In this document: one piece after another, positions 941 to 46,165 of the stretch
Layout: the number at the start of each line of letters is the position of its first letter
Position numbering within the stretch: position 1 is the stretch's first letter
NCBI GenBank assembly: GCA_000091205.1
Contig: AP006502.2
From: Cyanidioschyzon merolae
Taxonomy: Eukaryota
Length of the DNA: 64,000 nucleotides
Direction: 5' to 3' (one strand)
Translations under genes and position numbers: made by a program
The notes under the pieces: generated by a model
Databases searched by the model: none
Told to the model about the DNA's origin: nothing
What the model saw: the letters and a program-made list of their open reading frames with translations, nothing else

Positions 941-3574
941 ATGGAAGAATCAGTGGGAACGTACGCGACGCTTCATAGTCGACAACCTGCGTTCGTTGGA
1001 GAGCTCGTGAACGCCCGGCAAGTCAGTGCGCACTCGTGGAGACAACGAGCGTCCATTTATTCCAACCGACAGTACGTGTTTGGCCTGCCACACTTTCAGA
1101 ACTTTGCTTCTAAACGAAAGCGAAGTCGTTATTCAGTGTACAGGACGCAATGTGAACCGTGGCGGCAGCCGGGTCCCGCTGAGGCACGCTGGGCCGCGCT
1201 TGCTGGAGCTTGCTCCACCCTGCGCGCTGTGCAGCGCCAGGCTGACTTGCGTGAACCTCCATGCACCGCAACTGAGCCTAACCAAAGAGCGAACGCTTCG
1301 ACCACCAACGGAGAGTGGCGTCCGCGGCTCGTTGTTGTCGGACCTCCGGGTTCCGGCAAAACGACACTAACCGAGCAGTTGCGTCAAGTGTACGGTCTTG
1401 TACGGGTCGGATGCGGCGACCTGCTACGTGCCCACGTTTTATACGGGACGGATATTGGTTTGGCTTCCAAGGCGTATATGGAATCTAACGAACTGGTTCC
1501 AGATGGAATCGTGATACCTCTCGTTCTCGAAAGACTTCGACAACGAGATTGTGAGGAACACGGATGGGTCCTAGACGGATTCCCTCGGACTGAAGCGCAG
1601 GCGCTGGCCTTGTTTGACTTTCTGGATATCGTAGGTGACAGCGCTGATGCAGAAAACTCCAGTCCTTCGATATCCATGGGCGCAAGGCCCGCAGGAACCA
1701 TCATTCTGCTCGAAGCCAGCGATGAGTGTCTCGTGGAACGTATCCGCCATCGCCGCATTGACCCCGTTACCCATACTGTCTACAATATGAAGTTCAATCC
1801 ACCAGAAGAAGAGGATATCATGGAAAGGCTCCTCCGTGTCCCATCGGATGAACCGGAAGCGTTTCGCCTACGCCTGACGCAGTACCGGGAAGCGCTGCCG
1901 GCGCTCCTGGCATGCATTTCCCAGCTGACACGGGCTCGGCGTGGCGATCAAGCGAACAATGTTGGCCTGATTCGTCTGAATGTATCCGAGCCAGGTGTTC
2001 AAGATCGTTTCCAAGAACTTGAGGAGCAACTGAAGCGAATCTGGGGAGCCAAAAGGCGATCCAACCAGTACGCGGAACACATATCCGGTTCGGTCTGGGT
2101 GCCGCATGCCTCGACGGCACTTGCACGAGCGCGAGCGGCAGGATTGCTGAATACGCCCTCCACGCGTACCTTTTCGGACTGGCGTGAGGACCCGGTCGAG
2201 ACCTCACTCAATGGAGGCGCTGGTCAACGCGATCAACTAGGATCGGGCTTGAGTACAGCCCACGCGGACGACGATGCCGTGGAACCGATGCTTGATGGCG
2301 CGTCGATGTCATCTGGCCAAGTGTCGGCAGCGGAGCAAGGTGCCGCGAGCAGTCCAGTTCGTCGATCCAACGACAACGATGCTCCAGAGTTGACGCTGCG
2401 CTCAGATCCCGAGCGAGTAAAAGCGTCACCTCAACCAGTCGATGCCGAAACAGCGAATCGCTCGACGGCGAGCAAGTACGAAAAGGCGTCCATCACTTTG
2501 ATTCGTTGCGACGGTGTTCAGTGCGTTCGCGAAGTTGTTCATCTTGGTGATATCGCTTTTCATGGGAGCGCGACCGAACAAGTAATGCTTCGTTGGAACG
2601 AACGACCTCGAACGGTCCTCTTGCTCGTCAAAAAGGGAGCTAATCTTTGTGAAATAGCGAAGCAAGCGGTGGACTACTTGCAAAACAGCGAACGGCTTCG
2701 AGTGCTCGTCGAGCCCTGGGTCCAGACGGAGCTGTTCGCGCTCGGAACCTATACCGATTCGTTCCATCACAGCCAGGACTTGCACCGCTGCGTCGATCTG
2801 GTAGTTTGTCTCGGTGGTGATGGCCTCATTCTGTACACATCTACCCTATTTCGAACGGCGGTGCCTCCAGTTGCTCCGTTTAACCTTGGATCTCTCGGCT
2901 TTCTGACACCATTCGAATGGAAAGACTTTCAGGGACACATACGTACCATGCTTTCCAGTGATCTTATGCTTTCGCTGCGAATGCGCCTCTTGGCCACGGT
3001 GGTGCGCGTCTCGGGCCAAGCCGAGCAACAGTTTCATGTTCTGAATGAAGTTGTCGTAGACCGGGGAGCTTCGCCTTTTCTCTGCCAGCTGGAGTGTTAC
3101 TGGGATGATGCACCGCTCGCCAGCGTCCAAGCCGATGGGATTATCGTTGCGTCGCCGACCGGATCCACAGCCTACTCCCTCGCCGCCGGTGGTGCTATGG
3201 TGCACCCGAGTGTGCCAGCTATCTGTGTGACGCCGGTTTGCCCGCACTCGCTGGGTCTGAGGCCGGTTGTGCTCCCAGACTCGGCTCGTATTCGAGTCCA
3301 GGTGAGCCCCGAGGCACGCTCCCATGCCTGGGCGAGTTTCGACGGGAAGCACCGGCTGCAGCTGCGGCGCGGGGATTCGCTGCTTGTCGAAATGAGCAAG
3401 TACCCAATGCCGACTGTGAACGCTACTGATCATGCTGCCGACTGGTTTGGTTCTCTGAATCGTGGGTTCGGTTTTAACGTGCGCGGAGCGAAACCGAAAC
3501 CTCGTGTGATGGGGCGCTCCTCCACAGCGGAGCAAGCGAGTGTTGATCGCTTTGCGGACGGCACCGAATCATGA
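941..3574 (+). CDS. Adenylate kinase and NAD(+) kinase fused in one polypeptide (877 aa). The true start may be downstream of the first Met.
   Basis: N-terminal half carries the adenylate-kinase P-loop 'VVVGPPGSGKTTLTEQL', 'LDGFPRT' and a LID-like 'RRIDPVTHTVYN'. C-terminal half carries NAD-kinase motifs 'VVCLGGDGLILYTSTLF', 'NEVVVDRG' and 'DGIIVASPTGSTAYSLAAGGAMVHP'. A single uninterrupted ORF joins them through a low-complexity linker (about 2000-2460). Confidence 0.8.
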   Translation: MEESVGTYATLHSRQPAFVGELVNARQVSAHSWRQRASIYSNRQYVFGLPHFQNFASKRKRSRYSVYRTQCEPWRQPGPAEARWAALAGACSTLRAVQRQADLREPPCTATEPNQRANASTTNGEWRPRLVVVGPPGSGKTTLTEQLRQVYGLVRVGCGDLLRAHVLYGTDIGLASKAYMESNELVPDGIVIPLVLERLRQRDCEEHGWVLDGFPRTEAQALALFDFLDIVGDSADAENSSPSISMGARPAGTIILLEASDECLVERIRHRRIDPVTHTVYNMKFNPPEEEDIMERLLRVPSDEPEAFRLRLTQYREALPALLACISQLTRARRGDQANNVGLIRLNVSEPGVQDRFQELEEQLKRIWGAKRRSNQYAEHISGSVWVPHASTALARARAAGLLNTPSTRTFSDWREDPVETSLNGGAGQRDQLGSGLSTAHADDDAVEPMLDGASMSSGQVSAAEQGAASSPVRRSNDNDAPELTLRSDPERVKASPQPVDAETANRSTASKYEKASITLIRCDGVQCVREVVHLGDIAFHGSATEQVMLRWNERPRTVLLLVKKGANLCEIAKQAVDYLQNSERLRVLVEPWVQTELFALGTYTDSFHHSQDLHRCVDLVVCLGGDGLILYTSTLFRTAVPPVAPFNLGSLGFLTPFEWKDFQGHIRTMLSSDLMLSLRMRLLATVVRVSGQAEQQFHVLNEVVVDRGASPFLCQLECYWDDAPLASVQADGIIVASPTGSTAYSLAAGGAMVHPSVPAICVTPVCPHSLGLRPVVLPDSARIRVQVSPEARSHAWASFDGKHRLQLRRGDSLLVEMSKYPMPTVNATDHAADWFGSLNRGFGFNVRGAKPKPRVMGRSSTAEQASVDRFADGTES

Positions 3575-6500
3575 GCAGTGCCGATTCTGAGACCTGGAAT
3601 GCGCAGACGGGACTCATTCACGCGAGCCCAGCTGAGGTCTGTGTGCTTGCCTCGCACACTATCCACGCAAATGTCCAGAAGAGTGGCATTCAGACGAGTT
3701 GTGGAGTCCGCGCTTCACCTTGCACCCAGTTCATGGAGGCATCAGGCAGTGTAGATGGGGCGCAGATACCGCCAAGGCTCGGCGCGCCCGGGCGCTAAAC
3801 ACTCTACAGACCCCGTATGTCCAGCGTTCAGCAGAGCAATTGCGACCTCGGCGGTGAGTTCGACTCCGCCTAGGTACCAGAAGCGCGTCGAGTCAGCGGC
3901 TAGAGGTCGCGTTGAACGTGCTTCCGTGGTCGTCGTCGTCGTCGACATCTACTGTTGCTGCTGGTGGACCCGGCGCTTTGTTGCGACGACGCATTGCCGG
4001 CCGGTATCGTCGGAGCTTGCGGTGCAGATGCCGCTCCGCAGAGGCCGCGTCTGCAGGCCAGCGTCTGTCGATAAGCGCAGGTGCAGTCGCGTCCAGGCAC
4101 TGGAGTCGTGCTGCCAGTCGCGTCGTAGTCGCACGGGGTCTGTTTCGTGGGGAGTGTTCGTGGCCGTTGCGCGGCTGCGGATGCAACCACAGGGTCCAGT
4201 TTGGTAACGCGCACCGCATCCGCACAATGCAACTGTCCAAACAGACACCACAGATACGTATCTCTCGCGTGGGAGCACTGCGACGCGCGTCTGCAGCCGC
4301 AGGCAGGCTATCGACTATGCAAGTCGTGCGGTTACGAGCGCGTAGGTCAAGCACATCGCCTCGGTCGCATGTTCTGGATGGGGGGCTCGTTACTGCCACT
4401 GGAGCAGTCCGGATCAGCGCGTATCTCCATTCACTTGACTTTCCATGTTTAGAGTTGCGTCGGGTTACTGGTTTCAGGCAAGAGATGCCGACTTTCATAA
4501 ACACGAACACATATCACATGACCATTCTCGAGCGCAACAATCCGCTCACAACCTCTTGAGCGCGGAAAGAGCGTGCCACAGCATTCCCAAAAGAAGCTCT
4601 CAAACCGGAACCAACCTGTCCAGTAGAGTAACGAGATTAGACTCCAGGTGTACGGAAAGAGAAGCAAGGTAAAGATCAGGAACGCGTAGTCGTAGCGAGC
4701 TGGATGGATGTCGTTGAAGACCTTCACGACGCGGGGAACTGCGCCGCTCCACGCTGCCGGTGCCGGGGCTGTCGTAATCGTTGCCGTAGAGGCCCCGACC
4801 GACGCATCGACTGCGTCCGTGGTCGGCGTGCCGTCGGCTGCAGGGCCCACAGGCACTTGCGTCAGGCGATGCTCGCGAACCGTTTGCCAGTAACCGTAGC
4901 GATGCCGCTTCTGCCAGTCCGCAACGTACGGCGGCAGAAGCGCACCCTCGGCACCCGCGAGCGTCGAGCGCTGACTCGCAGCGTCGGGTCCCAGGCACGG
5001 ACCCGCTGGCCAAGCTGATGCACCCTCCCCGGGACCCAGTTCTTCACCGCAAACGAAGCAGCGCGAGTAGTACTGCGACAGCGGTAGAAACACGAACGAT
5101 TCTGGCTCCAAAGAGTCCGCGTCCGCGGCCGGCGTCAGAGGCGAGGCCACCAGACGCGGCTGGTGCAGCGCCGCGGCACTGTTCCCCGCGAATCCTCAGC
5201 CGTCTAGTGGCTCAAGCGGCTGGGCTCCAGCCGAAAGACGCTGGACGCCCCGTCCAGACCTGCTGGTTTGACGCTGACCTCCTGTGCGTTGCGTCGACGC
5301 ACCCCCTCCGACGAACACATGCACGCGCTCGTTTGCATCAGAAGCTTTGGACGTTGCCCGATCACCTGGTCCAGCTACTTTCCCCTGATCACCGTTTATC
5401 ATGTGCGTTCGTCTCGGTTGGTGGCAAGTTCTAGTCTCTCTGCCGGTTCACAGCGGTCTCTGGCGTTCCAGACTCGCCCAGGATACCGCCTATGAATGCA
5501 GCGCGGACGTCCGGCAGCGCTCCCGGCGGTGGTATCCGTTGACGCAGCGTCGAGGGATGATGAGGCGGCGACGATCGACGCCACAAACCCGCAGAGGATC
5601 GCATGCTCCGTTGGCCTCGGGAGTCCTAGTAGCGGCATATTGCTCGAGCTGGAAGCTTCATATCGCAAACATTGCTATAGGCGCCACTGCTGTCGCTTTC
5701 GGCAGGCTCGGCACACGACAGGACGTAGGAAACGACCAGAATATCCGAGACGAATTATAGGTAATGGAACATGGAAGTAGGGGGTTGATGGATACTTTAC
5801 AGTGCACTGAAAAAAAAGCATAAAGAAAGAAGGAAGAAACGCGCATAATCGGAGAACGCTGGCGTAAGTAAACGCTCTGTCAATGAAAAAAATCGCAAAC
5901 ATAGCATGGTATGGTCTTTCAACTGGATTTTGGTTCATAACAGCTGAGTGGAATCGAATGCTTGTTAACAGTGCATTGCTGGAAGTCCTAATCACGGTGC
6001 AGTGTATACTCTGGATCCTAGTCGAATTGTTTGTAAAATGGATTCTTTATTGAATAGTGCACGGAGGACGGCATTCTACATTCAGGTCAGTCTTACGTCT
6101 ACCCTCAGATGGTTGACGAGCACTAAAAGAGAAAAGTACATGCGCTCCGCGTCAAAAACCGACAGTCTCAAAGAGTTCTTGCGTTCAATGATAGAAAATG
6201 ATTCGTTGATCATCGAACTGAAAGCAATAAGCGGCGAGTACAGCCACCGCCGGTATCTATCTTTCTAAACAGCTTGCTCCTTTAGCCCTGAATACACTGG
6301 GATACAGTGGGAAAAAGGTCCTAGTTCACGCACGGCCATCTTGCACGGAAATCCCAACGATTACAACGTTCCTGGAACTCAGCGACCGGTTTGAAACACA
6401 AGGACATCGGTTTGTTTTTTAAGACGGCGAGGCCTCATTCGGATGAAACGGTCGGAGCTTATATGCGTACTCGCCGAGCATGCATCCCGTTTTATATACA

Positions 6501-8498: not shown

Positions 8499-9917
8499 TC
8501 ACCGCTCCGCCGATACACCACTGTTCGTCGCATGCCCAGAGTGCTGAGGATGGGCATGCCCGAGCTGCTGCAGCGCACGCTCCAGAATACGCTTCTTTCC
8601 TATGCGAAAGCGCCGCGCCAGCTCCAATCGCTGGTTGCTCGGCTGCCATTGCTCATCCTCAGTGAGCGTCGTCGGCTTGCGCGCGAGCTCTTCGCGAATC
8701 AGTGCTATCAGACCAGTCGCCGAGAGGTGTTGGACCGACTCTGGATTGCGCACGCGGCCTGTCGCATCGAAAACGATCGTCGTCTCTGAGGCATCGTCCC
8801 AGAGCTTGTACGTGTCGTGCGGGTTATCCTCTTCCACGAATCCGTACAAAGCCAAAAGTTCATCGTTGGTCAAAGTGCCGTACGATATGAAGACCTGATC
8901 GCCTGCATGCGTGTCTCGATTGCTTATGCTGAGCGAAAAAGCATCATAAAAGTACTCATAAGCGACCTTCGATTGGACGCGAGAAGAATGATTGAAGAGA
9001 TCAATGAAAGGTGCAATGACATACTTCTTCAACGGTGCACCCTGCATGGACTGATAAATGCGCGGGTACAGCGCGTCAAATACGAGCTGCGACAAGACCA
9101 CCACCAGAAAGACGTTCAGTGCTGCGAACGCGTCCATGAGATGAAAGTTCCAGCTCGCTAGGGAAAGTGCCCCAGCGAAACACGCCTGACGCCAGCGTTC
9201 ACCGAATGGCGTCGTCTCGGAGGGTCCGCTGAATGCGCGCGTGACAACGACGTTCAACGCCCACTGAAAGTCCTGTTCGCTGAATAAACCTCCTCGCACT
9301 TTCAAATCGATTCCGCCTCGTTCGAATGTCTGCCGCACGAACCGACCATAGAGATCCTTCCATTTTCGTTCCTGCTCGCTGATAGCCCGCAAAAGACAAT
9401 CATACTGGAGCTCCCGACGTTCTGCATCTGTCCAGTACAGAGGCCGCTCGTCAAATGTTGTCGGCAAGAGACGGAACCAGGGCGAAAGTGTGCAGTTAGA
9501 CGCCGATACTTTGGCAGGGCCTCGACGCTGGTTTGGCCGGATCTCCCAGCGCTTTAATTTGCGACGCAAGACAAGAGTCTCTAGCTTTCGAGCAGACTCA
9601 GGATCTGCTTTGTACCGCTCGAAAAGCAACAGAAGCGCGAGACGAGCGTACCAAGGCGCCTGCTTCCAGAACATGGGCGCGCAGACCTCTTCTGGCAGAG
9701 GACAACCTCGTCCGCTATCATCGGAGCGGGTCTGCAACGCCAGAAACCCCGGCACTCGAGCGAGAATCGAACCTGCAGGCAAGGCGGTTTCAGCTCTGAG
9801 GCCGCGTAGGTGCTCGCGGCCAAAGTGCGCAATGCTGAGTTCAGCGGTTTCAATGCCGGCGCCTTTTGCCCACTCCATAAAGCCGACCTCTATGCTATGA
9901 TCATTCAGCGTTGTCAT
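8499..9917 (-). CDS. SET-domain protein-lysine methyltransferase (RBCMT/SETD3/SETD6-like). The ORF track extends to 10634, but the likely start is the Met at 9915-9917 or 10089-10091.
   Basis: 'MEWAKGAGIETAELSIAHF...GSILARVP' N-terminal region. SET core 'FIDLFNHSSRVQSKVAYEY...DTHAGDQVFISYG'. C-terminal Rubisco-LSMT-like substrate-binding region. The upstream 240 codons of the ORF overlap the 3' tail of TnpB-like copy B and look non-coding. Confidence 0.75.
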   Translation of the reverse strand: MTTLNDHSIEVGFMEWAKGAGIETAELSIAHFGREHLRGLRAETALPAGSILARVPGFLALQTRSDDSGRGCPLPEEVCAPMFWKQAPWYARLALLLLFERYKADPESARKLETLVLRRKLKRWEIRPNQRRGPAKVSASNCTLSPWFRLLPTTFDERPLYWTDAERRELQYDCLLRAISEQERKWKDLYGRFVRQTFERGGIDLKVRGGLFSEQDFQWALNVVVTRAFSGPSETTPFGERWRQACFAGALSLASWNFHLMDAFAALNVFLVVVLSQLVFDALYPRIYQSMQGAPLKKYVIAPFIDLFNHSSRVQSKVAYEYFYDAFSLSISNRDTHAGDQVFISYGTLTNDELLALYGFVEEDNPHDTYKLWDDASETTIVFDATGRVRNPESVQHLSATGLIALIREELARKPTTLTEDEQWQPSNQRLELARRFRIGKKRILERALQQLGHAHPQHSGHATNSGVSAER

Positions 9918-10619
9918 ATCTAGCTGTGGCGAATGCCTCGTGGCTTCCCTGGTCCATGTATTCTGCTGGGGTTCCTCGCCCGCTGTACTCCTTTGGTGCT
10001 CGCGCGTGTTGCAGTGTTCGCCGCTTTTTTCTTCGCCCAGCTCTCCCTCTCGAGATAGCGTCGCACGCACGCTGGACCGGAAACGAGTCATCAACCGATT
10101 ACACGGAGAGAGGGCCGGTCCGCTGCACACGGACAACGCCACCGGGCACCGTTGCTGCCACACGGTCGACGGCAGCAGCCACGCAACGGTCATCTGGTCT
10201 GGTTCAGCTCTACCAGAAAACAAAAGCATAGTCCCAGTGAGTGACAACTGATCCGACGCAGCCTCACTCGAAGACGCAATCACACGCGCACCTCGCAAAA
10301 AGCAGAACCGTTCAGTGGACGACAATTTCGGAACGTCGCAGGTCACTGCGAAGCTATGATGCGCTGTGCCGCTGCGCTCCAGAGTTGCAAACACTCGCCC
10401 GTTCTTTCGGGGCGCAGCGTAGCCCGGTGCTCCAGTGTGCTTCCAGAGGTCCTTCTTGTACGTCTGAAACGTTTCTACGAAACCACTGAACAGCTTTCTA
10501 TCGTCCAACACGAAACTCAGGAGCTTCAGTCCTTGAGCGAACGAGCATGAGCTTCGTGCTCGCGAGCAGTTCGAGATAGGACGTTTTGGATCAAACGAGG
10601 ATCCGTCGCTGAGTTCGCG

Positions 10620-10730
10620 CACCCCTGGAAGCAAACGCCTTTCGAAAGTCGAACAACAGCGGTGTACAGTAGTGGCGGCAAACGCGCCCTAGACAAGAAG
10701 TCTCCAACCGAGATGCAGACGCCTCCCAGG
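10620..10730 (-). ncRNA. Candidate omega-RNA-like scaffold: conserved 3' tail of copy B
   Basis: Aligns base-for-base with 7500-7600, 'ggtggccggtc.aaa...ggaggcgtctgca...gttggagac...gtctagggcg...gccactactgtacac'. Confidence 0.3.
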
Positions 10731-15067: not shown

Positions 15068-18000
15068 TCATGTGATGCTTTCCAAAGCAGCACCTAGGGC
15101 GTGGTCATCAAACACGTCGTGGAAATCCCAGAACTGTACATTCCAGCGGGGGTGGTAGCGTCGACACCAGCGCTCAAACCCCTGGATATATGCGGGTCGC
15201 AGGTGCGCATCCAAAGAGTTCCGGAACGCCACCATGGACTCCTCGATGATCGAGGGATCCATGAGAATGCTCCCCGACAACGGATCCAGCATCACCTTGA
15301 CCGGAACATGCTCATAACCCCAGAAAGGCAGTTTCGTCACGATATCGCCGACCGCTGCCCATCGGAATGAAAACGGCACATGTCGCTGGAACGCTGCGGC
15401 GAAAGCGCGATTCCCGACTCGAGGCGACCCAAAAGTCACACTCATCACCAGATCCGATGACAGACGCAACGACTGTGAATTCTCAAAACACGTCATATCG
15501 AGGGCAGCGATGGTTGCCAGGGCCCCGCCGAGAGAGTGACCGCAAAAGATCACCGGTTTGTGGTTGCAAGATGCACTATCCAAGGAGTTCATCGCACTAC
15601 ACGGTTGCGCTTCGCTCGCATCTGCTGCTGCTGCTGCTGCTGCTGTAGCAGTTTCGCTTCGACACCGCGCTGCGGTCTCTCTACCCACTAAGCTCAGCTG
15701 CTGTTGCTGCTGCCCGTGTTCACAACCGCCATGAATATCTGCACTGGACACCTTGGGAAAGCGGTTCGATGGTTGCACGCGCCTATCCAGGCTGGTAGCG
15801 ACACCACAAGTGGCATCGCCGCAGGTGCTGCTCAAGGGCGCGCAAGCCGCATCCACTGCGGTTGGTGCAGTGCTCGAGGGCTTCGCAACAAGCGGTTTCA
15901 GCGTCTCCATTAACTCTTCACGCACGGATAAATAGGCGTGCAAAAATCCACCGTGCACCATTGAAGGCAATCGTCGCCCTATGAGATACGAAAAATCGTC
16001 ACCAGCCTGAGCGCGAAAATCACCAAAGCGCAGGGAACGGATCCCGCGTACGCTCAGCATATACTGCCACCATCGTCGATGTGCAAAACGGCCTCCAGGA
16101 TCTAAACCGAGTTCCTGTGACAGGGCATCATCAAGACCGCGCTCTATATCCGAATCGTCCTTGGCAAAGGCCTCCACTGATGCCTGGTGCTTCCTAGTCG
16201 AATCTATTTCGCGCTTGCTGTGTGTTGCGGGCGGTATTTGCGAACAAGTCGCAGCCGAGGTGCCGCTACGCCCGGCAGCCAAGGCAGTGGTGCTTACAGC
16301 ATTCGTCGTACGAGGCATTCGAGTTGTACCGTCGACAGTCGCTTTCGCCGGTGACTCCCGCAACGACCCGCGTTGACCGTGTTTGCTGCAGGCGCTCAAG
16401 CGCCACGTATCCTGTATTTGCGGACATTCACGTGCATGCAGGTGCTCCTCGAGAGGAACCCGTCGGACATTCATATCTGTGCGTAAATTTCTGGTGCTTT
16501 TGGTACCGCGAAAGCTCACCACAATCCTATCCGCCAAGTCAATGACGAGCACATGTACATCTGTAACGGCGCTGGAGATATGCCGCACGACTCGTGCTTG
16601 CAGGGGGTCCATTTCGCCCACACCATAATGATTGAACATCTCTGCATACATATGCGGGTCATGCCACGGTCGATAGGACAGGTACGCCATGTTGAAGATC
16701 AAAACATGCGTCTCGAGGACAAGTGAGCGCGAGAGCCAGCTGTCTCCATTTCGCAGTGCTTCCTGCTCAGTCTGGTAGTAGAGGTTTGCTTTGCGCAGCT
16801 CTCGCTCTGCATCCAGTGCGTCCGCTGGCCACGGTGCCGCCTGGCTGGCGCTGTGCGCGGACAACTCCCACTCGGAGGAAACGCTCCTTTGTGGGGCTCG
16901 CTTTTCTTGATATGCAGCTGGGTCCGGAGCCAGCGCAACGATCCAGGGCAGCCAAACACCCAGCACTGTCGGAGGTAAATGCACATAGAGCAGGAGCACC
17001 GACCATGTAAAGAGCATCGCGAAGGCACCACCATTGAATCGTGCAATACCCAGCAACCGCAACGGTACGCCATCGAGGGACGCGTTCGCGCTGGGTAATG
17101 GTACCAGGCCCACTGCGATGGTATCGTTTGCAATCAGGAATATATAGGATATCGCAGTAAAGACACGGTAGAAACGAGCACCCATTTGTTTGTGATGACA
17201 ACAGGTATACGGCAGCTGCTGGAGCACTCGGAAGGTGCGGTAGAGCTCCATGGCAATCCAACCATCGAGGAAAATGCGCATGGTAACCACGAGCGCAAAC
17301 GTAAGCGAGTAGGCCACTTGTTGTTGGTGTCCACGCATAGCAAACTGAACCAACATGCCCGGCCAGGTGAGTCCTAACGCCGTTCGAGACCAGCCGCAAA
17401 TGGCTGTCTCCACGGCGGCGATGATCAAACAGAGACCAAATACCACGCGGTTTCGTTCTAGAAACGTGTGGCGATCCTTAATATCACGATAAAGTCGTAG
17501 AATAGCCATGGCGTGTCCATAAAAACCAAATATCCAGAACCATTGCCAGACCAGGTCGGAGACATAGAGAATGGCAATCGTGGTGCCGCTCGCTTCCGAT
17601 ATCGTTCGTGCAATATTGCCTATAATATTCATCGTAAAGAATATAAATAGACCTTGTAGGAAGCAGCTGCGCATTTCGAAGGTGCAACGGATCCATCCAT
17701 ACCGATAGAGACGCAAAAAGTAGACGATCGTGAAAGTAAGCTGGAGCACGCAAAAGCAGTACACGACGACGCGGTCAACGAGGTTGAGTGCCGGGAGTGC
17801 CGCTTCGAAACGGCGTGCAAACAGACTCATTGCTAGCGTGTAGGTGACGGAGAGCACGATTGCACTGCATAAGTTGAGAATTTGCCAAGTTACCTGCTTC
17901 GAGGATAGCGTCTCAAGGAGGAACTTGGCTTCCTTTGGATCGCTTCGAATCTGTGGTGGAGCAAAGAAACTCGACAAACGACTGCGGTGACGTGCACTGC

Positions 18001-18133
18001 TTCGACGTGTGCGCGTGCCTCGTTCCTGTCCATTGATGAGTTCGCTGCTGCCTCTTAGCGTGCTGTCTCCAAATGTCTCCGACTCGAACGACGAGACGGA
18101 GGTACCACGAGCAGCCATGAGGGCAGCGTGCAA
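15068..18133 (-). CDS. Polytopic membrane domain (about 7-8 predicted TM helices) fused to a class-3 (fungal-type) lipase domain. Architecture resembles sn-1 diacylglycerol lipase but with more TM segments.
   Basis: N-terminal 400 aa contain repeated hydrophobic stretches ('LNLCSAIVLSVTYTLAMSLF', 'VVVYCFCVLQLTFTIVYFL', 'LFIFFTMNIIGNI', 'LVWQWFWIFGFYGHAMAIL', 'VVFGLCLIIAAVETAI', 'YSLTFALVVTMRIFLDGWI', 'AISYIFLIANDTIAVGLV', 'AFAMLFTWSVLLLYVHL'). The lipase_3 core has 'VVSFRGTKSTRNLRTD' and the nucleophile elbow 'VIFCGHSLGGALATIAAL'. Confidence 0.75.
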   Translation of the reverse strand: MHAALMAARGTSVSSFESETFGDSTLRGSSELINGQERGTRTRRSSARHRSRLSSFFAPPQIRSDPKEAKFLLETLSSKQVTWQILNLCSAIVLSVTYTLAMSLFARRFEAALPALNLVDRVVVYCFCVLQLTFTIVYFLRLYRYGWIRCTFEMRSCFLQGLFIFFTMNIIGNIARTISEASGTTIAILYVSDLVWQWFWIFGFYGHAMAILRLYRDIKDRHTFLERNRVVFGLCLIIAAVETAICGWSRTALGLTWPGMLVQFAMRGHQQQVAYSLTFALVVTMRIFLDGWIAMELYRTFRVLQQLPYTCCHHKQMGARFYRVFTAISYIFLIANDTIAVGLVPLPSANASLDGVPLRLLGIARFNGGAFAMLFTWSVLLLYVHLPPTVLGVWLPWIVALAPDPAAYQEKRAPQRSVSSEWELSAHSASQAAPWPADALDAERELRKANLYYQTEQEALRNGDSWLSRSLVLETHVLIFNMAYLSYRPWHDPHMYAEMFNHYGVGEMDPLQARVVRHISSAVTDVHVLVIDLADRIVVSFRGTKSTRNLRTDMNVRRVPLEEHLHARECPQIQDTWRLSACSKHGQRGSLRESPAKATVDGTTRMPRTTNAVSTTALAAGRSGTSAATCSQIPPATHSKREIDSTRKHQASVEAFAKDDSDIERGLDDALSQELGLDPGGRFAHRRWWQYMLSVRGIRSLRFGDFRAQAGDDFSYLIGRRLPSMVHGGFLHAYLSVREELMETLKPLVAKPSSTAPTAVDAACAPLSSTCGDATCGVATSLDRRVQPSNRFPKVSSADIHGGCEHGQQQQQLSLVGRETAARCRSETATAAAAAAADASEAQPCSAMNSLDSASCNHKPVIFCGHSLGGALATIAALDMTCFENSQSLRLSSDLVMSVTFGSPRVGNRAFAAAFQRHVPFSFRWAAVGDIVTKLPFWGYEHVPVKVMLDPLSGSILMDPSIIEESMVAFRNSLDAHLRPAYIQGFERWCRRYHPRWNVQFWDFHDVFDDHALGAALESIT
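15621..15644. repeat. (CTG)8 microsatellite inside the lipase ORF (poly-Gln on the minus strand)
   Basis: Direct reading. It encodes 'QQQQQQ' within 'CEHGQQQQQLSLVG'. Confidence 0.9.
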
Positions 18134-23330: not shown

Positions 23331-24467
23331 ATGGACTCTGGATGGTATGAGCGCTCGCTGGACCCTTTCGGAACTCGTCTGCTATGGAAGCGAACACGTG
23401 CATCCGCGGGTATCGAGTTCGAGGCATTGATCCAAAGTCGTATGAATCGCGGCCAGTCGGAGGCCACGTGGCCGCGCATCCACGCGTTGCTTGCTCGAGC
23501 GTTGCTCCGAGCCCAGCTTGTCGCTGGATATACCCGTGCGGAACACCCGCTTCGAAACCTAGGACGCGTTGGAAGCGAGTCTGGGACTCTGCAGACGCCT
23601 CCTGCGTGCTTTCCTGGGTCGTTCGAAGCGATCTTGGTAGAAATGGCAACGCTTACCCCAACGGAAGAGTCTACCAGTGCCCGCAGTCTTCGTCGTGACT
23701 TTCGGAATACCTTTCGACACCTCGCTGCCGCGCTTTTTGCAGCTGTTTTATCGGCTTGTGCCGACCATCTGCATCAGTGGAGCCTATTTCCGGTCTCAGT
23801 TTCGAAACTGGTCTCTGTTGGAGTCTACGCATCAAGCTGGCTTGTATACTCCTGGCAATGCAGCAGGAAGCCACAGAGGCTTACTTCGCGGCTTGTTTCG
23901 ACAACGTCGCAACGCCGAGAACTCGCAACCATTGTGGTCCACCGAGCCGGGGAAAGCTTTGGACACACGGCAATGGTTGCCGGACTATTCATACGAACTG
24001 CCTCCTACCGGATCATTCTAACTTATTTCGTGATCGAATACGTGGCAACCTGGGCAGGGTTCAGCGTTTGGATCTCGGGACCTCGCTATGCTCCCACGAC
24101 ACCGAATGAAAGCTCGCAAGAGACCAGGCTTGAAAAGGCACCGGCACGCCAGCGAGTATGGCGGCTTTTGGAGTTTTTGAATGGACCCCATGCCCTAGGT
24201 GTAACCCTCGGATGGGTGCTCCCATTCGTGCTCGTGACGTATTGCACTTTTCGAGCGACGCGCGTGTCACCGACCGTGCATTCGTCCTCCATGATGGCGG
24301 AATTGAGCGCCATCGGGCTCTGGCAATCCGCTCGCATGCGTATCGCAGAGTGGCTGATGTTTGTCGCAGGCGCAGCGCATATGCTATGTATATGCGGCAA
24401 CGTTCTCATCACCACAATATATCTTGCAACCGTGGAGCCAGATTCCCGGCAGTCGAAGAAAGCGTAG
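23331..24467 (+). CDS. Hypothetical multi-pass membrane protein
   Basis: A 378-aa ORF with several hydrophobic segments ('LAAALFAAVLSACA', 'VSVGVYASSWLVYSW', 'IILTYFVIEYVATWAGFSVWI', 'ALGVTLGWVLPFVLVTYC', 'WLMFVAGAAHMLCICGNVLITTIYL'). No recognisable motif. Confidence 0.3.
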   Translation: MDSGWYERSLDPFGTRLLWKRTRASAGIEFEALIQSRMNRGQSEATWPRIHALLARALLRAQLVAGYTRAEHPLRNLGRVGSESGTLQTPPACFPGSFEAILVEMATLTPTEESTSARSLRRDFRNTFRHLAAALFAAVLSACADHLHQWSLFPVSVSKLVSVGVYASSWLVYSWQCSRKPQRLTSRLVSTTSQRRELATIVVHRAGESFGHTAMVAGLFIRTASYRIILTYFVIEYVATWAGFSVWISGPRYAPTTPNESSQETRLEKAPARQRVWRLLEFLNGPHALGVTLGWVLPFVLVTYCTFRATRVSPTVHSSSMMAELSAIGLWQSARMRIAEWLMFVAGAAHMLCICGNVLITTIYLATVEPDSRQSKKA

Positions 24468-28960: not shown

Positions 28961-29725
28961 ATGTTGGCTTTCATCCCATCATTCAGCAAAAAGCCGCAGT
29001 TAAGCGGTGTAAGAGGAATCGAAACAGGTGCCCATCCGAGCGGCCGGCGACGGAGCGGTTTCTACCAGCGCAGAGCAGGAGTCGGTGCCCGAACGCTGCG
29101 CTCCGAGTCCGACGACCCGAGCGAACTCTTCGAAAGAATATCCTTGGATAAGCCCCGGCGTCTTTTTAGAGTCACAGCCGAGCCAGAAACAACCTCGAAC
29201 GGGATGTCCGCGTTGTCGCCGTCGGCCACGCAGCAGCATAATGGTGACGCTGTAGTTCTCTCGAACGAGCCAGACGCTTTGCAGAAGAGCGACGCCGAGC
29301 TCCGAGAAACCATCGAGCGACTCGGGCTTACGGAGGCGATCTTCGGAAACACATCCCAAACGGATAAGCAGGACAAGAACGCAGTTCCGCAACAGGTCAG
29401 CTTCGAGGAAATCAGTGCAATAAAGTGCTTCTACACAGCGCTGTTGGCCTGGTGCTTCAGTTGGCTAATGTGGAACGTGATGGGCTATCTGATTGTGAAA
29501 TTTGAGGCCCTTGGTCCGGTGTCGGACTGGTATGTCGTTCAGCGATTAACAGTGGTCTTCCGAGCGCTTGTCGTCGCGAGTTTTGCGATGGGATCTGGTC
29601 TCAGTTTCTTTACGGGTGCCGGGTTGGTGCTTCTCGGCGGTCGCGTGCTCTATAGTCGATCGCAACGGACAGGGCCTACCTCGGAGACGAGACCGGATTC
29701 CCGATCTGAAAGCGACGCCCTGTAA
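28961..29725 (+). CDS. Hypothetical membrane protein
   Basis: A 254-aa ORF with two or three hydrophobic segments in the C-terminal half ('ALLAWCFSWLMWNVMGYLIV', 'VVFRALVVASFAMGSGLSFF', 'GAGLVLLGG'). No motif recognised. Confidence 0.3.
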   Translation: MLAFIPSFSKKPQLSGVRGIETGAHPSGRRRSGFYQRRAGVGARTLRSESDDPSELFERISLDKPRRLFRVTAEPETTSNGMSALSPSATQQHNGDAVVLSNEPDALQKSDAELRETIERLGLTEAIFGNTSQTDKQDKNAVPQQVSFEEISAIKCFYTALLAWCFSWLMWNVMGYLIVKFEALGPVSDWYVVQRLTVVFRALVVASFAMGSGLSFFTGAGLVLLGGRVLYSRSQRTGPTSETRPDSRSESDAL

Positions 29726-35614: not shown

Positions 35615-36523
35615 TCACGGTTTCGAACTCGACCCGGATCCGCTGATATTTCCTGCGTGCAACCCGCATTCCTTCTTGGTTTGGTCCTCCCACCACCAAC
35701 GGCCTTCACGTTCATGCTGGCCAGGGAGGACGGCACGCGTGCAGGGCTCACACCCGATGCTGATGTAACCGCGCTCATGGAGTTCGTTGTATGGGACTTC
35801 CAGAATTCGGATTGTGTCCCAAACCTGCTTCGAGCTCATGTTCGCAAGCGGGTTAAACTTGACAAGCATGCCGTCGCCCTCGAGACCTGCGAACGTCGGG
35901 TCTACCTGCGCCACGGGGATCGCGGCCCGAGTACCAGGTGACTGATCACGTCGCTGACCCGTGATCCACGCTCGAAGGGTAGCCAGCTGCTTCCTCAGGG
36001 GCTGAACTTTGCGGACGCCGCAGCACTCTTGGTGCCCATCCGTGTAGAACGAGAAGAGACCCTTGTTTCGGACGAGTTTCTCTACTTCAGTCGCATCCGG
36101 GAAGCAGTATTCGATGCGGATTTCATAGTGGCGCTCCACGCGATCGAAGAAACGGTACGTTTCAGGGTGCAACCGACCAGTGTCCAGGGCGAACACACGG
36201 AACGGCCGTTTCGTTTGCGACGCATACTCGACAAGGAGCACGTCCTCCGCACCCGAGAACGCAATAGCACAGTCAGACCCGAAAACTCGGAGCGCTGCGT
36301 CGATCACCTCCACCGGGTCGGAGTTTTCGTCCAAAGATGCAAATTCAGCGGGAAGACTCGGCACTACTGCCGTTGCGTGTATACCAAGCACTCCCGAGCG
36401 TCCGCTACGCAAAGTCGCACGTTTGGGTTGCCCAAGCGGCCGCCAGGCGATCACGCGTCGACTGCACGCACACTTAGACCGCCGTTGCGAACTGCTCGGG
36501 AAACCAGCTGTGAACTGGAACAT
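35615..36523 (-). CDS. APS/PAPS reductase (CysH family; Fe-S-cluster type without a C-terminal thioredoxin domain) with an N-terminal extension of about 50 aa
   Basis: '[17 protein letters not shown]', the Cys pair '[11 protein letters not shown]', '[10 protein letters not shown]' and the catalytic 'KECGLH'. Confidence 0.85.
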
Positions 36524-38744: not shown

Positions 38745-40694
38745 TCAGGCCGAGAGTACCGCACTCGACGCATTCGGCAACGCTTCCCTCCACTGCAGCG
38801 AATCCTTCAACGCCAGCGTAAGCATCAGTGCCTGGGCATAGTTCAGTCGCGGATCGCAAGCTGAATGGTACGCGCGAGCGAGGTCATGAACTGCGGTTCG
38901 GGTGGCGCCACCAAGGCACTCGGTCACCGCTTCGCCGCTCATTTCCAGGTGTATGCCACCAGCAGGCACACCTTCGGCAGCGGTAATTTCAAAGAATAAC
39001 CGCATCTCGTCGAGAACCTGCTCACAGTCTCGAGTCTTGAATGAATTGCCGTTCTTGTCCCGAACACTCTGGGTATTCGCATGCATCGGATCGCACATCC
39101 AGACGACTGCGAGGCCGCTGCGCTTCACCGCTGCCATGAGCGGTGGAAGCTTTCGCTGGAGAGCATCCACACCCATGCGTGTGATCAGTGTCAGACGTCC
39201 GGGAGTGTTCGCGGGATTCAGGATCTCGGCTAGCGCAAATACTTGCTCCAGTGTAGCGTTTCCAGACAGTTTCACGCCAATCGGATTGGAAACACCTCGA
39301 AGAAACTCAACATGAGCGCCATCAATCTGGCGAGTGCGCTCACCTATCCAGAGAAAATGAGCACTTGTCGCATAATACTGCGGCGCTGATAATAAATCGA
39401 TAGGCGATCCCGCGTCTCGGTTCAGGTGCTCCAGGGTATGTGCATTGCCCGAAGGAGACCAGTCGGCAAGGCGCACTAGGCCTTCCTCGTACGGAAGTAA
39501 AAGTGCTTCGTGCGACGTGAACACATTCTCGATCACGTTTGTGTCGATACTTGTTACATGGCGGCCAGTGCTGCTCATCACTATGATTTCTTCATCGATT
39601 CCTTGCACCAGGTTTTGAATCGCCTTCACCAGGTTCGAGTCCACGACGCTGTCCCAGGCCAGTTTCTCGCTCAAAATCCTCAGCGATTCCATCGGAGACG
39701 CATGCAGGTGCTCAAGAACACGCAGATGTTCCAGAGACGCGGACGCATGCCGGTACGCCTGCAAGAGTCGCTGTGGGTCCGGAGTTCGCGCTCTGCCATT
39801 CGGTGCTGCGGAGTGCACGATGTCGCCCCGGAACGACGGCAGCCCGTCCGCATCCACAGGAGCAGAGCGAGGCTTCGCAAACTGACCTGCTATGCGTCCG
39901 ATTCGAACGATACGCCGCTTGCTCCCAGTACTCGATAAGATAGCCGCCTGGGCAGCCAGCAAATGGTAGAGGCTTATGTTGTACTCGAGGGTGCGGCTCG
40001 AGAACGTTTCGGCACAGTCCCCACCCTGAATCACGAACGCCTCACCGTGACACGCCGCGGCCAAGTGCTCGTGCAGTGATCTGATCGATTTGGGTGTCAC
40101 GAGACCGGGGAGTGTGCGCAAACCCGCTTCGACGAGCGCCAGCTGGTCTTTATCCGGGTACACGGGTAGCTGGTGCGCAGGTCGCTGGCGCCAGGAGCTC
40201 GGTGACCACGGCTCCGACCCTACCTGCCGACCCCCGATCGAGACGCTGTTTCGCAGTCCGAACGCTCCGCAGCCATCGCCGAGCCGTACGCAGACCTCCG
40301 CGCCCCGTTCAACGTAGTAGACGCGGCTGCTCAGCGCGACGCTTCCACACCGACGCACCGCTTGCCAAGCAGCGCGCCCGCTCACTCTTCGCCGAAACGG
40401 ATTCGACACCACAAACCCTTCCATTGAACGTATAGTGCACGTAATAGCGGACGAAGGTCGCTTCGATGCAACTGAGCCCGCAACGGCTTCCGAAGCTGCC
40501 GCCCCCGGAAGCATTCTGCGCTTACAGCCAACCTCGCTGCTGCTGTTGCCGGACGCAAAAACGGCGGCAACCGGCATTCCGGCCGCCGCCAATGTCGACG
40601 CCTTCCTGCAGCGCATCCGGACACGTGTCTGGTTCCCGGCGGCGTTTTGATCATCGTTCACCTCAAATGTGTTCCACATTCCGGTGCAGGTCAT
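38745..40694 (-). CDS. 3-deoxy-7-phosphoheptulonate (DAHP) synthase, class II (plant/AroAII type). A 170-aa N-terminal extension is either a transit peptide or an over-extended ORF.
   Basis: 'SEPWSPSSWRQRPAHQLPVYPD', 'AFVIQGGDCAETF', 'RIAGQFAKPRS', 'WIGERTRQIDGAHVEF'. The conserved domain starts near 40180. Confidence 0.85.
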   Translation of the reverse strand: MTCTGMWNTFEVNDDQNAAGNQTRVRMRCRKASTLAAAGMPVAAVFASGNSSSEVGCKRRMLPGAAASEAVAGSVASKRPSSAITCTIRSMEGFVVSNPFRRRVSGRAAWQAVRRCGSVALSSRVYYVERGAEVCVRLGDGCGAFGLRNSVSIGGRQVGSEPWSPSSWRQRPAHQLPVYPDKDQLALVEAGLRTLPGLVTPKSIRSLHEHLAAACHGEAFVIQGGDCAETFSSRTLEYNISLYHLLAAQAAILSSTGSKRRIVRIGRIAGQFAKPRSAPVDADGLPSFRGDIVHSAAPNGRARTPDPQRLLQAYRHASASLEHLRVLEHLHASPMESLRILSEKLAWDSVVDSNLVKAIQNLVQGIDEEIIVMSSTGRHVTSIDTNVIENVFTSHEALLLPYEEGLVRLADWSPSGNAHTLEHLNRDAGSPIDLLSAPQYYATSAHFLWIGERTRQIDGAHVEFLRGVSNPIGVKLSGNATLEQVFALAEILNPANTPGRLTLITRMGVDALQRKLPPLMAAVKRSGLAVVWMCDPMHANTQSVRDKNGNSFKTRDCEQVLDEMRLFFEITAAEGVPAGGIHLEMSGEAVTECLGGATRTAVHDLARAYHSACDPRLNYAQALMLTLALKDSLQWREALPNASSAVLSA

Positions 40695-41763: not shown

Positions 41764-44142
41764 ATGCTCGCGTGTCCAGGGGCAGCTCGGGGAGAACGCC
41801 GCACCGTCAGCGACGACGCACCGTCGCCGCGGCGCGATCAGCGCACCGTTTCGCGTCGGAACATTCGCCGCGTGGGGCCGGCAGCGCGCGCCTCTCCTTC
41901 GCGCTCCATGCATCGTGGCGTCGCCATCCCTGCGACTGTCCAGCCACGCTCCTATCTTTGCATTGTGTTGCGTGGAGCACGTATGGTCGAGCCGTCTGTG
42001 GTGTGGTGGTGCCTGGTGGAAGCGCTCAAGCGACGCTTACTCCGTCAACAGCGCTGGCAGTTATGGCTCCTGGTCGTGGGCCTTTTCCTTCTTTGTACGA
42101 TACGCCCAAGGATGCAGAGTGTTCTGGATGCCGCCAGTAAGGAACCCGGGTCCCTACTGGATCCGAATCCAATGTATATTCCTGCGTGGGACGCACAAAC
42201 CGGTGCGGTGCTAACAGCTTTTGATCCTCAGAGGCACCTCCTGCCGTTCCACTTCATTGCATGCTCTTCAGATGACTGGGGCCGCATCGCGGATAGCGTC
42301 CCACTATTTCGCGACTCGCATGCACGTCAGGAGTTTCTGGCCGTGGCGTCTGAGGAGCTGAAGCGTTCACTGCGCCAGACCGACTGGTCCATGGCAACCG
42401 TAGAAACCGTGCGTGATCTGCAGCGACTCCACGAGTTCCTACTTCGCCTGCAGGAGGCTGCAGGAGAACCGCGTCAGCGTTTCGTGCTGTCACCCATGTG
42501 GGTTGTCGGCGGACCCGACATCCCCGCCATGCAAAACCAGCTCGATATCAAACGGGAAGGCAGCACCGGGCCGCTGCGTGAACGATCATCTGACGCCCAG
42601 CTCTGGGTGGACGCTCGCGTCCAGCGCGCAGCTGCGACCCCGGAACGCCGGGGTCGCATGCGTCTGGTACAGCGGTCGCCTAGGGAGAGATGGCGAAACA
42701 GTCGCCAGCGGCTGCATGAAACGCATGCCGAGTATCCGCAGCCGGGTGTCGGGCAGCGCTCCACGGACCCCGTGGGCGAAACGCGGCGCGCTGGGGTAAC
42801 TTTGCAACGCCCTGATTCCCTGAAGAGGTTCACGGGCCAATCGTCGACGTGGGGATTGCTGACGCGGCCGGTCGTACCTACAGACGCACAGGCTGTACAC
42901 GCTGCACCAACAGGTTTCCCCTATCGAAGCATGTACATGTGCCGGCTTTCACGAAACGGTGCATCAATACTTCCAGGCCGCGATCTGATCGAATCCATTG
43001 AGGTTGCCGAATGGTACCGTAAGCTGTGGTACGATCGCGTGTGGGCACCTCAGTTCCACGGCAGCGCCCATATCCATCCACATCGCTGGCTCGAAGCGCT
43101 CGAGCGGACACGACCTCTGCGGCGACAACGAAGCACTGCAAGGACGCGAATTATTCGCAGCGCCTACGACAGCCTCCGTGAAGGCTACGTCTACGCGGGA
43201 AACATCACCGCTCTGCGTTCTGAGTTCGCGGATGGCGCTTGGTCACCGGCAAGCCTACGAAAAGGCATTGAGACATTTGCAGGGTTTTGGGGTTATCGAC
43301 CGCGGGTTATGAGCTCGCCGCATAACACCTGGACGCCGTCGTTCGTCCAGCATCTCGTTGCGAGTCATGCAGTCTTTGGCATCGATGCTGGCACTGGTCA
43401 ATGTGCGACGCTCGTGATTCCAAACGCGACTCAGCGCTCCGTTTCATGCATCGATCGTGAACCGTGGGATACGTTCGCGGGGCGTGCCGCGCGTCTCGAT
43501 GCGCGCATGCCACTCATCCAGGAGCGGATTGCGGCGTTGAGGCCGGGATTTACGAGCCTCGCCTGGCACGCACAGAATGCACTGAGCGCGACGACATCGC
43601 CCCGGGTGGCTGCTGCGCACCTGGAGCATCTGGAAACGTTTGTGCATTGGGTACAGCGCCAGAATCATACTGTTTTCGTGACATCCAATGAACTTCATCA
43701 AATTCGTTTGCGTGGATGGAGCCTCGAGGTATGGCCAGATGCATTCGTTTATCGAAATTTTCTCCCATACGACATACTCGTATTGGTTCCGTGCCTTGAG
43801 GACATGTTCTCAGGAGCTTCGCCATGGGAAGCAGCGCCTTTACGCGTCGTCCGGCTTGATCAGCGTCTCATCCGCGCTCCGATCTCACAGTCGAGTCCCG
43901 AACTGACGCAGTGCCGACCCTGGTCGGCACTGATGGCGGATTCACAGCACGGGCATGCACTGCCTCGGAGCTTACGATACATTCAGCGGCAGAAGCAGAA
44001 ACGGAAGCAGCTTGCCGCCACTCCGGCCTTTCGAGGTTGTCGCTGTCAGCGCATTCGATTGCCCTCGTTTATGGATGATGGCGTCCTTCTTCTGCCAGGC
44101 AACAGTCATTGGATCGAGGTTCGGCGCCTGTCGCACGAGTGA
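41764..44142 (+). CDS. Large hypothetical protein (792 aa) with an N-terminal hydrophobic segment
   Basis: A long uninterrupted ORF with a hydrophobic region 'WQLWLLVVGLFLLCTI' near residue 100. No motif recognised. Confidence 0.35.
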   Translation: MLACPGAARGERRTVSDDAPSPRRDQRTVSRRNIRRVGPAARASPSRSMHRGVAIPATVQPRSYLCIVLRGARMVEPSVVWWCLVEALKRRLLRQQRWQLWLLVVGLFLLCTIRPRMQSVLDAASKEPGSLLDPNPMYIPAWDAQTGAVLTAFDPQRHLLPFHFIACSSDDWGRIADSVPLFRDSHARQEFLAVASEELKRSLRQTDWSMATVETVRDLQRLHEFLLRLQEAAGEPRQRFVLSPMWVVGGPDIPAMQNQLDIKREGSTGPLRERSSDAQLWVDARVQRAAATPERRGRMRLVQRSPRERWRNSRQRLHETHAEYPQPGVGQRSTDPVGETRRAGVTLQRPDSLKRFTGQSSTWGLLTRPVVPTDAQAVHAAPTGFPYRSMYMCRLSRNGASILPGRDLIESIEVAEWYRKLWYDRVWAPQFHGSAHIHPHRWLEALERTRPLRRQRSTARTRIIRSAYDSLREGYVYAGNITALRSEFADGAWSPASLRKGIETFAGFWGYRPRVMSSPHNTWTPSFVQHLVASHAVFGIDAGTGQCATLVIPNATQRSVSCIDREPWDTFAGRAARLDARMPLIQERIAALRPGFTSLAWHAQNALSATTSPRVAAAHLEHLETFVHWVQRQNHTVFVTSNELHQIRLRGWSLEVWPDAFVYRNFLPYDILVLVPCLEDMFSGASPWEAAPLRVVRLDQRLIRAPISQSSPELTQCRPWSALMADSQHGHALPRSLRYIQRQKQKRKQLAATPAFRGCRCQRIRLPSFMDDGVLLLPGNSHWIEVRRLSHE

Positions 44143-46134: not shown

Positions 46135-46165
<31 letters not shown>

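Follow-up and report, generated by a model that had tools for sequence, protein, structure and literature searches.

An adenylate kinase-family domain fused to a probably plastidial NAD kinase in Cyanidioschyzon merolae: a conserved red-algal architecture with a possible regulatory role

Near the start of a 64,000-nt stretch of Cyanidioschyzon merolae DNA (GenBank assembly GCA_000091205.1, contig AP006502.2; this whole stretch is called the window below), a single open reading frame (ORF) encodes an adenylate kinase (AK)-family domain and a NAD kinase (NADK) on one polypeptide. The ORF lies at positions 941–3574 of the plus strand, begins with ATG and continues for 877 codons in a single open frame, as an earlier note made from the letters of this DNA had stated and as the ORF listing confirms. 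It is the intact nuclear gene CMT143C, also named CmNADK2. Its product is a single polypeptide of five parts, namely a disordered presequence, an AK-family domain, a disordered linker, a beta-hairpin pre-domain and a complete NAD kinase, and the motifs that the note had named (P-loop, GGDG, NE/D and Gly-rich) are all present at verified translation coordinates. The features of the gene are listed here, with amino acid positions given as aa and with the confidence of an AlphaFold2 (AF2) model given as the predicted local distance difference test score (pLDDT).

941–3574 (+): whole ORF, 877 aa plus stop, from the ORF listing; CMT143C, CmNADK2, BAM83146.1, XP_005539182.1
941–1321 (+): N-terminal presequence, aa 1–127; predicted to be disordered, pLDDT <50 at aa 1–124
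1322–2056 (+): AK-family domain of the long type with LID, aa 128–372; Pfam, TIGR01351 and 1zak matches, AF2 core pLDDT ~80–90
1340–1363 (+): P-loop GPPGSGKT, aa 134–141, verified in translation; nearly invariant in the fusions, K13 equivalent in 16/16
1619–1702 (+): 28-aa Cyanidiales-specific insertion in AK, aa 227–254; missing from florideophyte orthologues, AF2-disordered at aa 231–251
1739–1873 (+): LID region, aa 267–311, aligned with 1zak and with a variant of E. coli AK; pLDDT 63–69
2057–2473 (+): inter-domain linker, aa 373–511 (~139 aa); AF2-disordered, pLDDT ~27–34
2474–2608 (+): NADK2-type pre-domain, aa 512–556, 'K..ITLIRCDGxxCxRE...F.G.ATEQVMLxWN'; invariant columns, AF2 strands at aa 518–523 and 528–533
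2609–3490 (+): NAD kinase catalytic domain of the eukaryotic cytosolic/plastid type, aa 557–850; PF01513 and PF20143, human NADK 9cr4
2813–2824 (+): GGDG motif, aa 625–628, verified in translation; invariant in 17 red-algal sequences
3044–3067 (+): NE/D motif NEVVVDRG, aa 702–709, verified; N702, E703, D707, R708 and G709 invariant
3155–3193 (+): Gly-rich (GSTAYS-type) motif PTGSTAYSLAAGG, aa 739–751, verified; T740–S746 and A749–G751 invariant
3491–3574 (+): C-terminal tail, aa 851–877, plus stop; variable (5–46% identity), pLDDT <50 for aa 828–877

A stop codon is found in frame two codons 5′ of the ATG, and since aa 1–128 contain no second methionine, M1 is the sole start able to include the P-loop. 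Across the same 877 codons, the two other forward frames hold 30 and 31 stops, so the open frame is not a product of chance. The translated protein is 100% identical to BAM83146.1 of C. merolae 10D (XP_005539182.1, UniProt M1UXF5), which is placed on a 1.62-Mb chromosome record and labelled 'similar to inorganic polyphosphate/ATP-NAD kinase' in the database. The beginning of the gene is overlapped in another frame by a 147-aa ORF (535–978, +), called as a gene in metagenome annotation (2595–3038 of contig L002, see below); in DNA this rich in GC, the call is probably spurious.

The AK–NADK architecture is already published, having been catalogued in 2014. Table S1 of Li et al. 2014 (PLoS One 9:e101051, PMC4072752) lists CMT143C as CmNADK2 (BAM83146.1, 877 aa) in subfamily II, a group that also takes in the chloroplastic AtNADK2, and the paper describes subfamily II NADKs as having gained, by gene fusion, additional catalytic domains at the N-terminus (DSPc, PTPc/DSPc or ADK, PF00406). 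Its text leaves unnamed the subfamily II proteins that bear ADK, which are given in a figure. The paper is a catalogue of domains and phylogeny; AK catalytic residues, the linker, targeting, conservation beyond two Cyanidiales genomes and biochemistry lie outside its scope. In the literature searched, 'NADK' occurred with 'adenylate kinase domain' in Li et al. 2014 only, 'CMT143C' was absent from the main texts, and no biochemical or cell-biological study of an AK–NADK fusion was found. The earlier note had not known the architecture to be characterised, a view that holds for its biochemistry within the literature searched but not for the architecture itself.

Two adjacent genes for AK and NADK that had been merged through faulty assembly or annotation, or a sequencing error that hid a stop or frameshift, would give the same appearance. 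Such an artefact would suit a linker that is long, of low complexity and little conserved, and the database holds NADK-only entries for some relatives (P0002, 629 aa; P0036, 713 aa). However, the ADK + NADK architecture is present in 16 protein clusters (clustering at 90% identity) from two red-algal classes, the Cyanidiophyceae and the Florideophyceae, its holders being Cyanidium (KAK4534023.1 in Cyanidium caldarium), a Cyanidioschyzon-like relative, Eucheuma, Agarophyton and Gracilaria. Single assembled transcripts with complete ORFs span both domains in Eucheuma denticulatum (GFKZ01009072), Agarophyton chilense (GEZJ01003134) and Gracilaria changii (a Trinity contig), and a 13.7-kb genomic contig of another relative (L006) carries the fusion as one uninterrupted ORF. 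Three independent metagenome assemblies (contigs L002, L003 and L004, from Joint Genome Institute (JGI) metagenomes 3300051093, 3300053647 and 3300054994) recover the CMT143C copy of a near-identical C. merolae-like strain, with flanks that match strain 10D at ~99% of bases. This environmental copy differs from that of strain 10D at 11 of 2634 nt (four synonymous and seven non-synonymous, too few to be of use for dN/dS), with no indel and no stop. As for the NADK-only entries, they are clipped gene calls: in a relative that is ~69% identical (L001), the frame stays open in the 5′ direction through a full AK domain with GPPGSGKT, to an N-terminus reading MESCSSAKARQAFVSQ. Together with the in-frame stop just upstream of the ATG and the stop counts of the other frames, these observations effectively refute a mis-join, which we consider extremely improbable.

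The earlier note had itself raised the mis-joined pair and had proposed transcript evidence, homology searches in relatives and resequencing as checks. The fusion is kept from Cyanidiophyceae to Florideophyceae and lies on three orthologue transcripts, both domains and an open junction frame are recovered in orthologues, and the independent environmental assemblies show no stop or frameshift between the domains, all of which favours one gene. The exact C. merolae protein was not found in the contig index searched for transcript evidence; a Logan contig of 2.5 kb that carries an orthologue (L005) is devoid of a poly(A) tail and may be either transcript or genomic DNA. The idea that P0002 and P0036 signal a facultative fusion was rejected on the same reading of L001 as a frame that continues through AK. 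In that contig (JGI metagenome 3300041539), the real ORF of ~860 aa, AK included, occupies 3296–5890, and a prokaryote-style gene call had reduced it to a 629-aa 'NAD+ kinase'. Prokaryote-style calling on eukaryotic metagenome contigs can hide such fusions from database domain architectures.

When 1.84 billion cluster representatives were scanned exhaustively with HMMER, the fusions among the best 150 matches were P0003, P0011, P0014 and P0056 only, all of red-algal type; the remaining multi-stretch matches among these 150 either contain several AK domains or are NADKs that have a different N-terminus. Profile search yielded no new fusions. The fusion is a conserved red-algal architecture whose assigned distribution comprises the Cyanidiophyceae and the Florideophyceae, with Galdieria (GsNADK1, 738 aa), the Bangiophyceae and Porphyridium outside the assignment. 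Because it occurs in both classes, parsimony would place its origin in the red-algal ancestor.

The AF2 model, computed on a 17-sequence alignment (mean pLDDT 59.8, predicted template modelling score (pTM) 0.40), folds AK at aa ~125–372, the beta-hairpin at aa 518–533 and NADK at aa ~547–827. Predicted disorder covers aa 1–124, a loop within AK (aa 231–251), aa 375–511 and aa 828–877, and with a pTM of 0.40 the model provides no usable inter-domain geometry. Sequence identity between C. merolae and its orthologues is 11–31% in the presequence, which also takes four of the seven amino acid differences to the environmental strain. The linker is 9–26% identical to those of florideophytes and 32% identical to that of the closest relative, and the frame stays open across it in every case. 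The linker of about 150 low-complexity residues described in the earlier note is real, corresponds to aa 373–511 (~139 aa) and is predicted to be disordered; aa 512–556 are an NADK2-type hairpin element instead. Within the linker, an Ala/Arg-rich motif, VPHASTALARARAAGLL, occupies 2096–2146 (aa 386–402), with a near-identical counterpart, VPHASMSFARARAAGLL, in the 69%-identity relative. By eye it is like 'RPASAAAAMRA' of the florideophyte linkers, and AF2 places a short helix at aa 393–399. The motif may serve as a short linear element for interaction or regulation, or it may be mere low-complexity sequence.

Judged by its sequence, the NADK domain is complete, has every catalytic motif and is a member of the NADK family. 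The Pfam models NAD_kinase (PF01513) and NAD_kinase_C (PF20143) match aa 559–671 (E=9.9e-13, 49.0 bits against a cut-off of 25.5) and aa 701–827 (E=2.4e-36, 124.7 bits against 23.7), respectively, and identity between C. merolae and the florideophyte orthologues is 58–63% over the domain. NCBIfam adk and NAD kinase models also match, with the bacterial NADK equivalog cut-offs missed (e.g. 166.8 against 316), as expected for a eukaryotic enzyme. The closest solved NADK is the human cytosolic enzyme (9cr3/9cr4, 8kgc, 3pfn), to which the NADK half matches with E=8.7e-77 (9cr4). Human NADK has an N-terminal regulatory region, but this is a disordered tail under phosphorylation control, whereas the fusion carries a folded nucleotide-kinase domain. 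A precedent for NADK joined to another catalytic domain, one that has related phosphorylated nucleotides as its substrates, is the archaeal bifunctional NADP phosphatase/NAD kinase (NF010678, PRK14076), whose partner is an inositol-monophosphatase-type NADP phosphatase instead of AK; NF010678 matches the NADK part only (E=1.1e-40, profile positions 286–548, score 140 against a 493-bit cut-off). A further unusual NADK architecture was seen in P0046, an 832-aa protein of the choanoflagellate Didymoeca costata (EukProt), in which PF01513 and PF20143 each match twice and the two NADK units lie in tandem.

The segment immediately upstream (aa 512–556) belongs to the NADK2-type kinase and not to the linker. 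It is 55–62% identical between C. merolae and florideophytes, and as a 55-aa query it aligns to plant NADK2-type proteins (P0048, P0049, P0050, P0051, P0055 and P0115) with E values of 2e-9 to 1.5e-7; the homologous segment of Dionaea NADK2 (P0050) reads KAEMFLVRTDGISCTRE..HPSTQQQMLMW. The hairpin consensus common to the green NADK2 proteins and the fusion is K-x-x-[FL]-L-[IV]-R-x-D-G-x-x-C-x-R-E ... Q-x-[ML]-L-x-W. Two cysteines in the hairpin, C523 (2507–2509) and C528 (2522–2524), are invariant in all 17 red-algal fusions, whereas the plant NADK2-type proteins have Thr at the C523 position and keep only the second Cys. That the pair forms a red-alga-specific redox switch of the thioredoxin type is pure speculation.

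The fusion resembles green plastid NADK2 (AtNADK2, Dionaea P0050) in its layout and pre-domain, both having a presequence, an N-terminal accessory domain, a long linker, the beta-hairpin pre-domain and NADK. The accessory domain itself is different, being a DSP-PTPase-like domain (PF22741, PTP-NADK) in green NADK2 and an AK fold in the red-algal fusion. PF22741 was found in eight of the eight plant-type relatives tested, and a Pfam scan gave no match to it in the CMT143C protein. For the placement in NADK2 or subfamily II, we rely on Table S1 of Li et al. 2014 and on the later phylogeny of Vickman & Erives 2019 (PMC6675116), which makes the NADKs of rhodophytes the sister group of the plant plastid NADK2 clade and leaves AK unmentioned.

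Rhodophyte plastid presequences carry a Phe-based motif at the extreme N-terminus (PMC7038456), and eight florideophyte orthologues start with M-x-[AG]-F-[VIAL] (MEAFV, MDAFV, MNAFV, MEGFV and the like). In Cyanidiales, the AFV/GFV tripeptide occurs further in, at aa 17–19 in C. merolae, aa 13–15 in its relative and aa 5–7 in Cyanidium. The C. merolae presequence has 'PAFVGE' at aa 16–21, away from the extreme N-terminus, which makes the plastid case weak for this species. No experimental localisation of CMT143C was found in the literature searched. The presequence is probably an organelle-targeting region, and from the Phe-based N-termini of the florideophytes, along with the subfamily II/NADK2 affinity, CMT143C is probably a plastid NADP+-synthesising enzyme and the red counterpart of green-lineage NADK2.

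The AK domain is recognized by Pfam (ADK, PF00406, aa 132–323, E=8.6e-30, 104.3 bits against a cut-off of 26.8) and by TIGR01351 (adk, E=1.8e-42; its 145.4 bits are under the 168 cut-off of that model). Many adenylate kinases of solved structure match it, the closest single-domain relative among them being maize AK (1zak, 147 bits). The top Protein Data Bank score, 169 bits for mammalian AK8 (9fqr_G8), is the sum of two AK8 domains with ~90 bits per domain, and AK8 was rejected as the nearest relative. Like the long-type AKs 1zak, E. coli 1ake and AK8, none of which is fused to NADK, the domain combines a long LID with a P-loop and with NMP-binding and core arginines. When 16 fusions were aligned in E. 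coli Adk numbering, and 1zak and a variant of E. coli AK served for mapping as well, the equivalents of K13, R36, D84, R88, Q92, R119, R123 and R124 were kept in all 16, the position of D159 was Asp in 15 and Glu in Cyanidium, and the AMP-site elements LLRAH, DGFPR and Q220 (C. merolae numbering) were invariant or almost so.

The LID departs from this pattern. In C. merolae, R267, R271 and R272 are kept, as is the equivalent of R167, and the R156 position is Val300; the other 15 fusions have Leu there, so that Arg occurs in none of the 16. Position D158 is Ser, Val or Lys, and R167 is Arg in Cyanidiales only (C. merolae and Cyanidium), the other 14 having Leu, Ser, His or Val. Canonical enzymes such as 1zak and 1ake have Arg at R156 and Asp at D158, and R156, D158 and D159 are all retained in P0018 and P0019, AK fusions of an unrelated kind that came from the same search. 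The fusions thus deviate from the canonical LID-arginine requirement (R123, R156, R167 and the D158–D159 pair). R156 and R167 are among the arginines of E. coli Adk whose replacement reportedly makes phosphoryl transfer slower by orders of magnitude (Kerns et al. 2015, Nat Struct Mol Biol). Conservation is uneven along the domain: identity between C. merolae and florideophytes is 51–60% over aa 128–226 and 24–33% over aa 255–345, and the Cyanidiales-specific insertion has 24–25% identity and contains two of the seven differences to the environmental strain (D236G and T253A). The nucleotide-binding half is conserved as strongly as the NADK domain, while the LID/C-terminal half evolves much faster, a pattern that shows strong constraint on the former and relaxed constraint on the latter.

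One suggestion for what the AK module might do is catalytic coupling, which extends the local ATP regeneration proposed in the earlier note: an active AK would convert two ADP to ATP and AMP beside NADK, removing inhibitory ADP and resupplying ATP, so that NADP+ could be made even when the energy charge is low, or with ADP in effect as the donor. The invariant P-loop, AMP-site residues (R36, R88, Q92), core arginines (R119, R123, R124) and D84, the acidic residue at D159 throughout, the R167 equivalent retained in C. merolae and Pfam and TIGR adk scores far above noise are what a working enzyme would show, and the substrates and products of the two reactions are complementary as a matter of established biochemistry. 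Yet all 16 fusions are without Arg at R156 and the 14 non-Cyanidiales are also without R167, the LID half evolves fast, and a disordered tether of ~139 aa with a low pTM gives no sign of a channel or fixed interface. The flux of NADP+ synthesis is, moreover, minute next to adenylate turnover, so that proximity would bring little kinetic gain from local ATP regeneration. On balance, coupling appears unlikely, though it deserves serious consideration.

Calling the domain dead for want of R156 is not justified. Domain 2 of AK8 shares with the fusions the LID pattern R-L-L-x-x-P-x-D, and AK8 is reported active (PMC10056885). With this common pattern, and with basic residues flanking the missing Arg, AK activity in the fusions is not predictable from sequence; the non-canonical LID lowers confidence in it but does not exclude it.

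The AK-like module may instead have taken on a different role altogether, as another nucleotide or dinucleotide kinase, as an effector site for NAD(P)(H) or for ligands of the Ap-n-A type, or as a structural or oligomerisation module. The divergence of its second half (24–33% identity) and the altered LID residues could be accommodated in this way, and the wholly different phosphatase-like domain that the green lineage has in the same slot indicates that the slot tolerates module swapping. However, adenine-NMP recognition is defined by Q92 and the AMP-site arginines, all of them invariant, every one of the best matches is a bona fide adenylate kinase, and nothing points to any specific alternative substrate. 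A role of this kind seems distinctly improbable.

We tentatively favour the reading in which the AK module is mainly an adenylate-binding regulatory module that tunes NADK, as opposed to a high-flux ATP-regenerating partner, although its chance of being right is slightly short of even. In such a mechanism, the NADK half would do the chemistry (NAD+ + ATP to NADP+ + ADP), the AK module would bind adenylates so that NADK activity is set by the ATP/ADP/AMP status of the stroma, and the module might keep a slow AK turnover, especially in Cyanidiales. Regulation is preferred over ATP regeneration because of the deviant LID residues and the rapid evolution of the LID half, the ~139-aa flexible tether without a predicted interface, the small flux of NADP+ synthesis relative to adenylate turnover and the regulatory nature of the N-terminal regions of other NADKs, that of human NADK being inhibitory (PMC11759006) and that of AtNADK2 binding calmodulin (PMC6593290). 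A more specific version, in which a slow or pseudo-adenylate kinase acts as an energy-charge sensor that closes over ATP and AMP/ADP and gates the tethered NADK, and to which C523/C528 might add a redox input, is doubtful as it stands.

Several observations pull the other way from a regulatory AK module. AK8 domain 2 has a like LID (ARLLQNPKD...IKLKM), with no Arg at R156 and Lys at R167, and both AK domains of AK8 are reported to be active (PMC10056885). Basic residues one to two positions from the missing Arg (R299 in C. merolae; K/R of 'LDKDR' in florideophytes) might compensate for it. The LID/C-terminal half of the florideophyte proteins aligns at low identity, which renders the assignment of R167 less certain there, and the full set of ATP-site and AMP-site residues is kept, as in a working AK. 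For the explanation as a whole, which combines the identity of the gene, the conserved fusion, a plastid NADK and a regulatory AK module, we estimate a probability of about 0.5.

Beyond the fusion gene, the window carries ordinary eukaryotic genes at 8499–61222, and no tRNA was found in the rest of the stretch. The products below were assigned by Pfam, except for three long ORFs that have no Pfam match.

8499–10634 (-): long ORF without Pfam match
15068–18133 (-): class 3 lipase
23331–24467 (+): long ORF without Pfam match
28961–29725 (+): DUF3082 protein
35615–36523 (-): PAPS reductase
38745–40694 (-): class II DAHP synthase
41764–44142 (+): long ORF without Pfam match
44645–46618 (+): DUF2103 protein
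48613–49983 (+): GT4 glycosyltransferase
51122–52423 (-): methionine aminopeptidase with zf-C6H2

To our knowledge, NADP(H) is made by no route other than NAD kinase. Plastid NAD kinase sets the size of the electron-acceptor pool in photosynthesis, and the way in which it is matched to light and energy status is, as far as we know, poorly understood, in plants included. The gene and its architecture were known beforehand, and the question left is what the fusion does rather than whether it exists. What is added here is incremental: the fusion is genuine and red-alga-wide, it has the NADK2 pre-domain in common with the green enzymes, its orthologues have plastid-type N-termini, and its LID is non-canonical. 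An AK fold in red algae in place of the phosphatase-like domain of plants is a natural experiment on the control of plastid NADK, and as C. merolae is genetically tractable, the function of the fusion is directly testable. If the AK module is indeed a sensor, plastid NADP+ synthesis would follow stromal adenylate status, and the red and green lineages would have independently brought plastid NADK2 under control by fusing it to different phosphate-handling domains, AK in the one and a PTP-like domain in the other.

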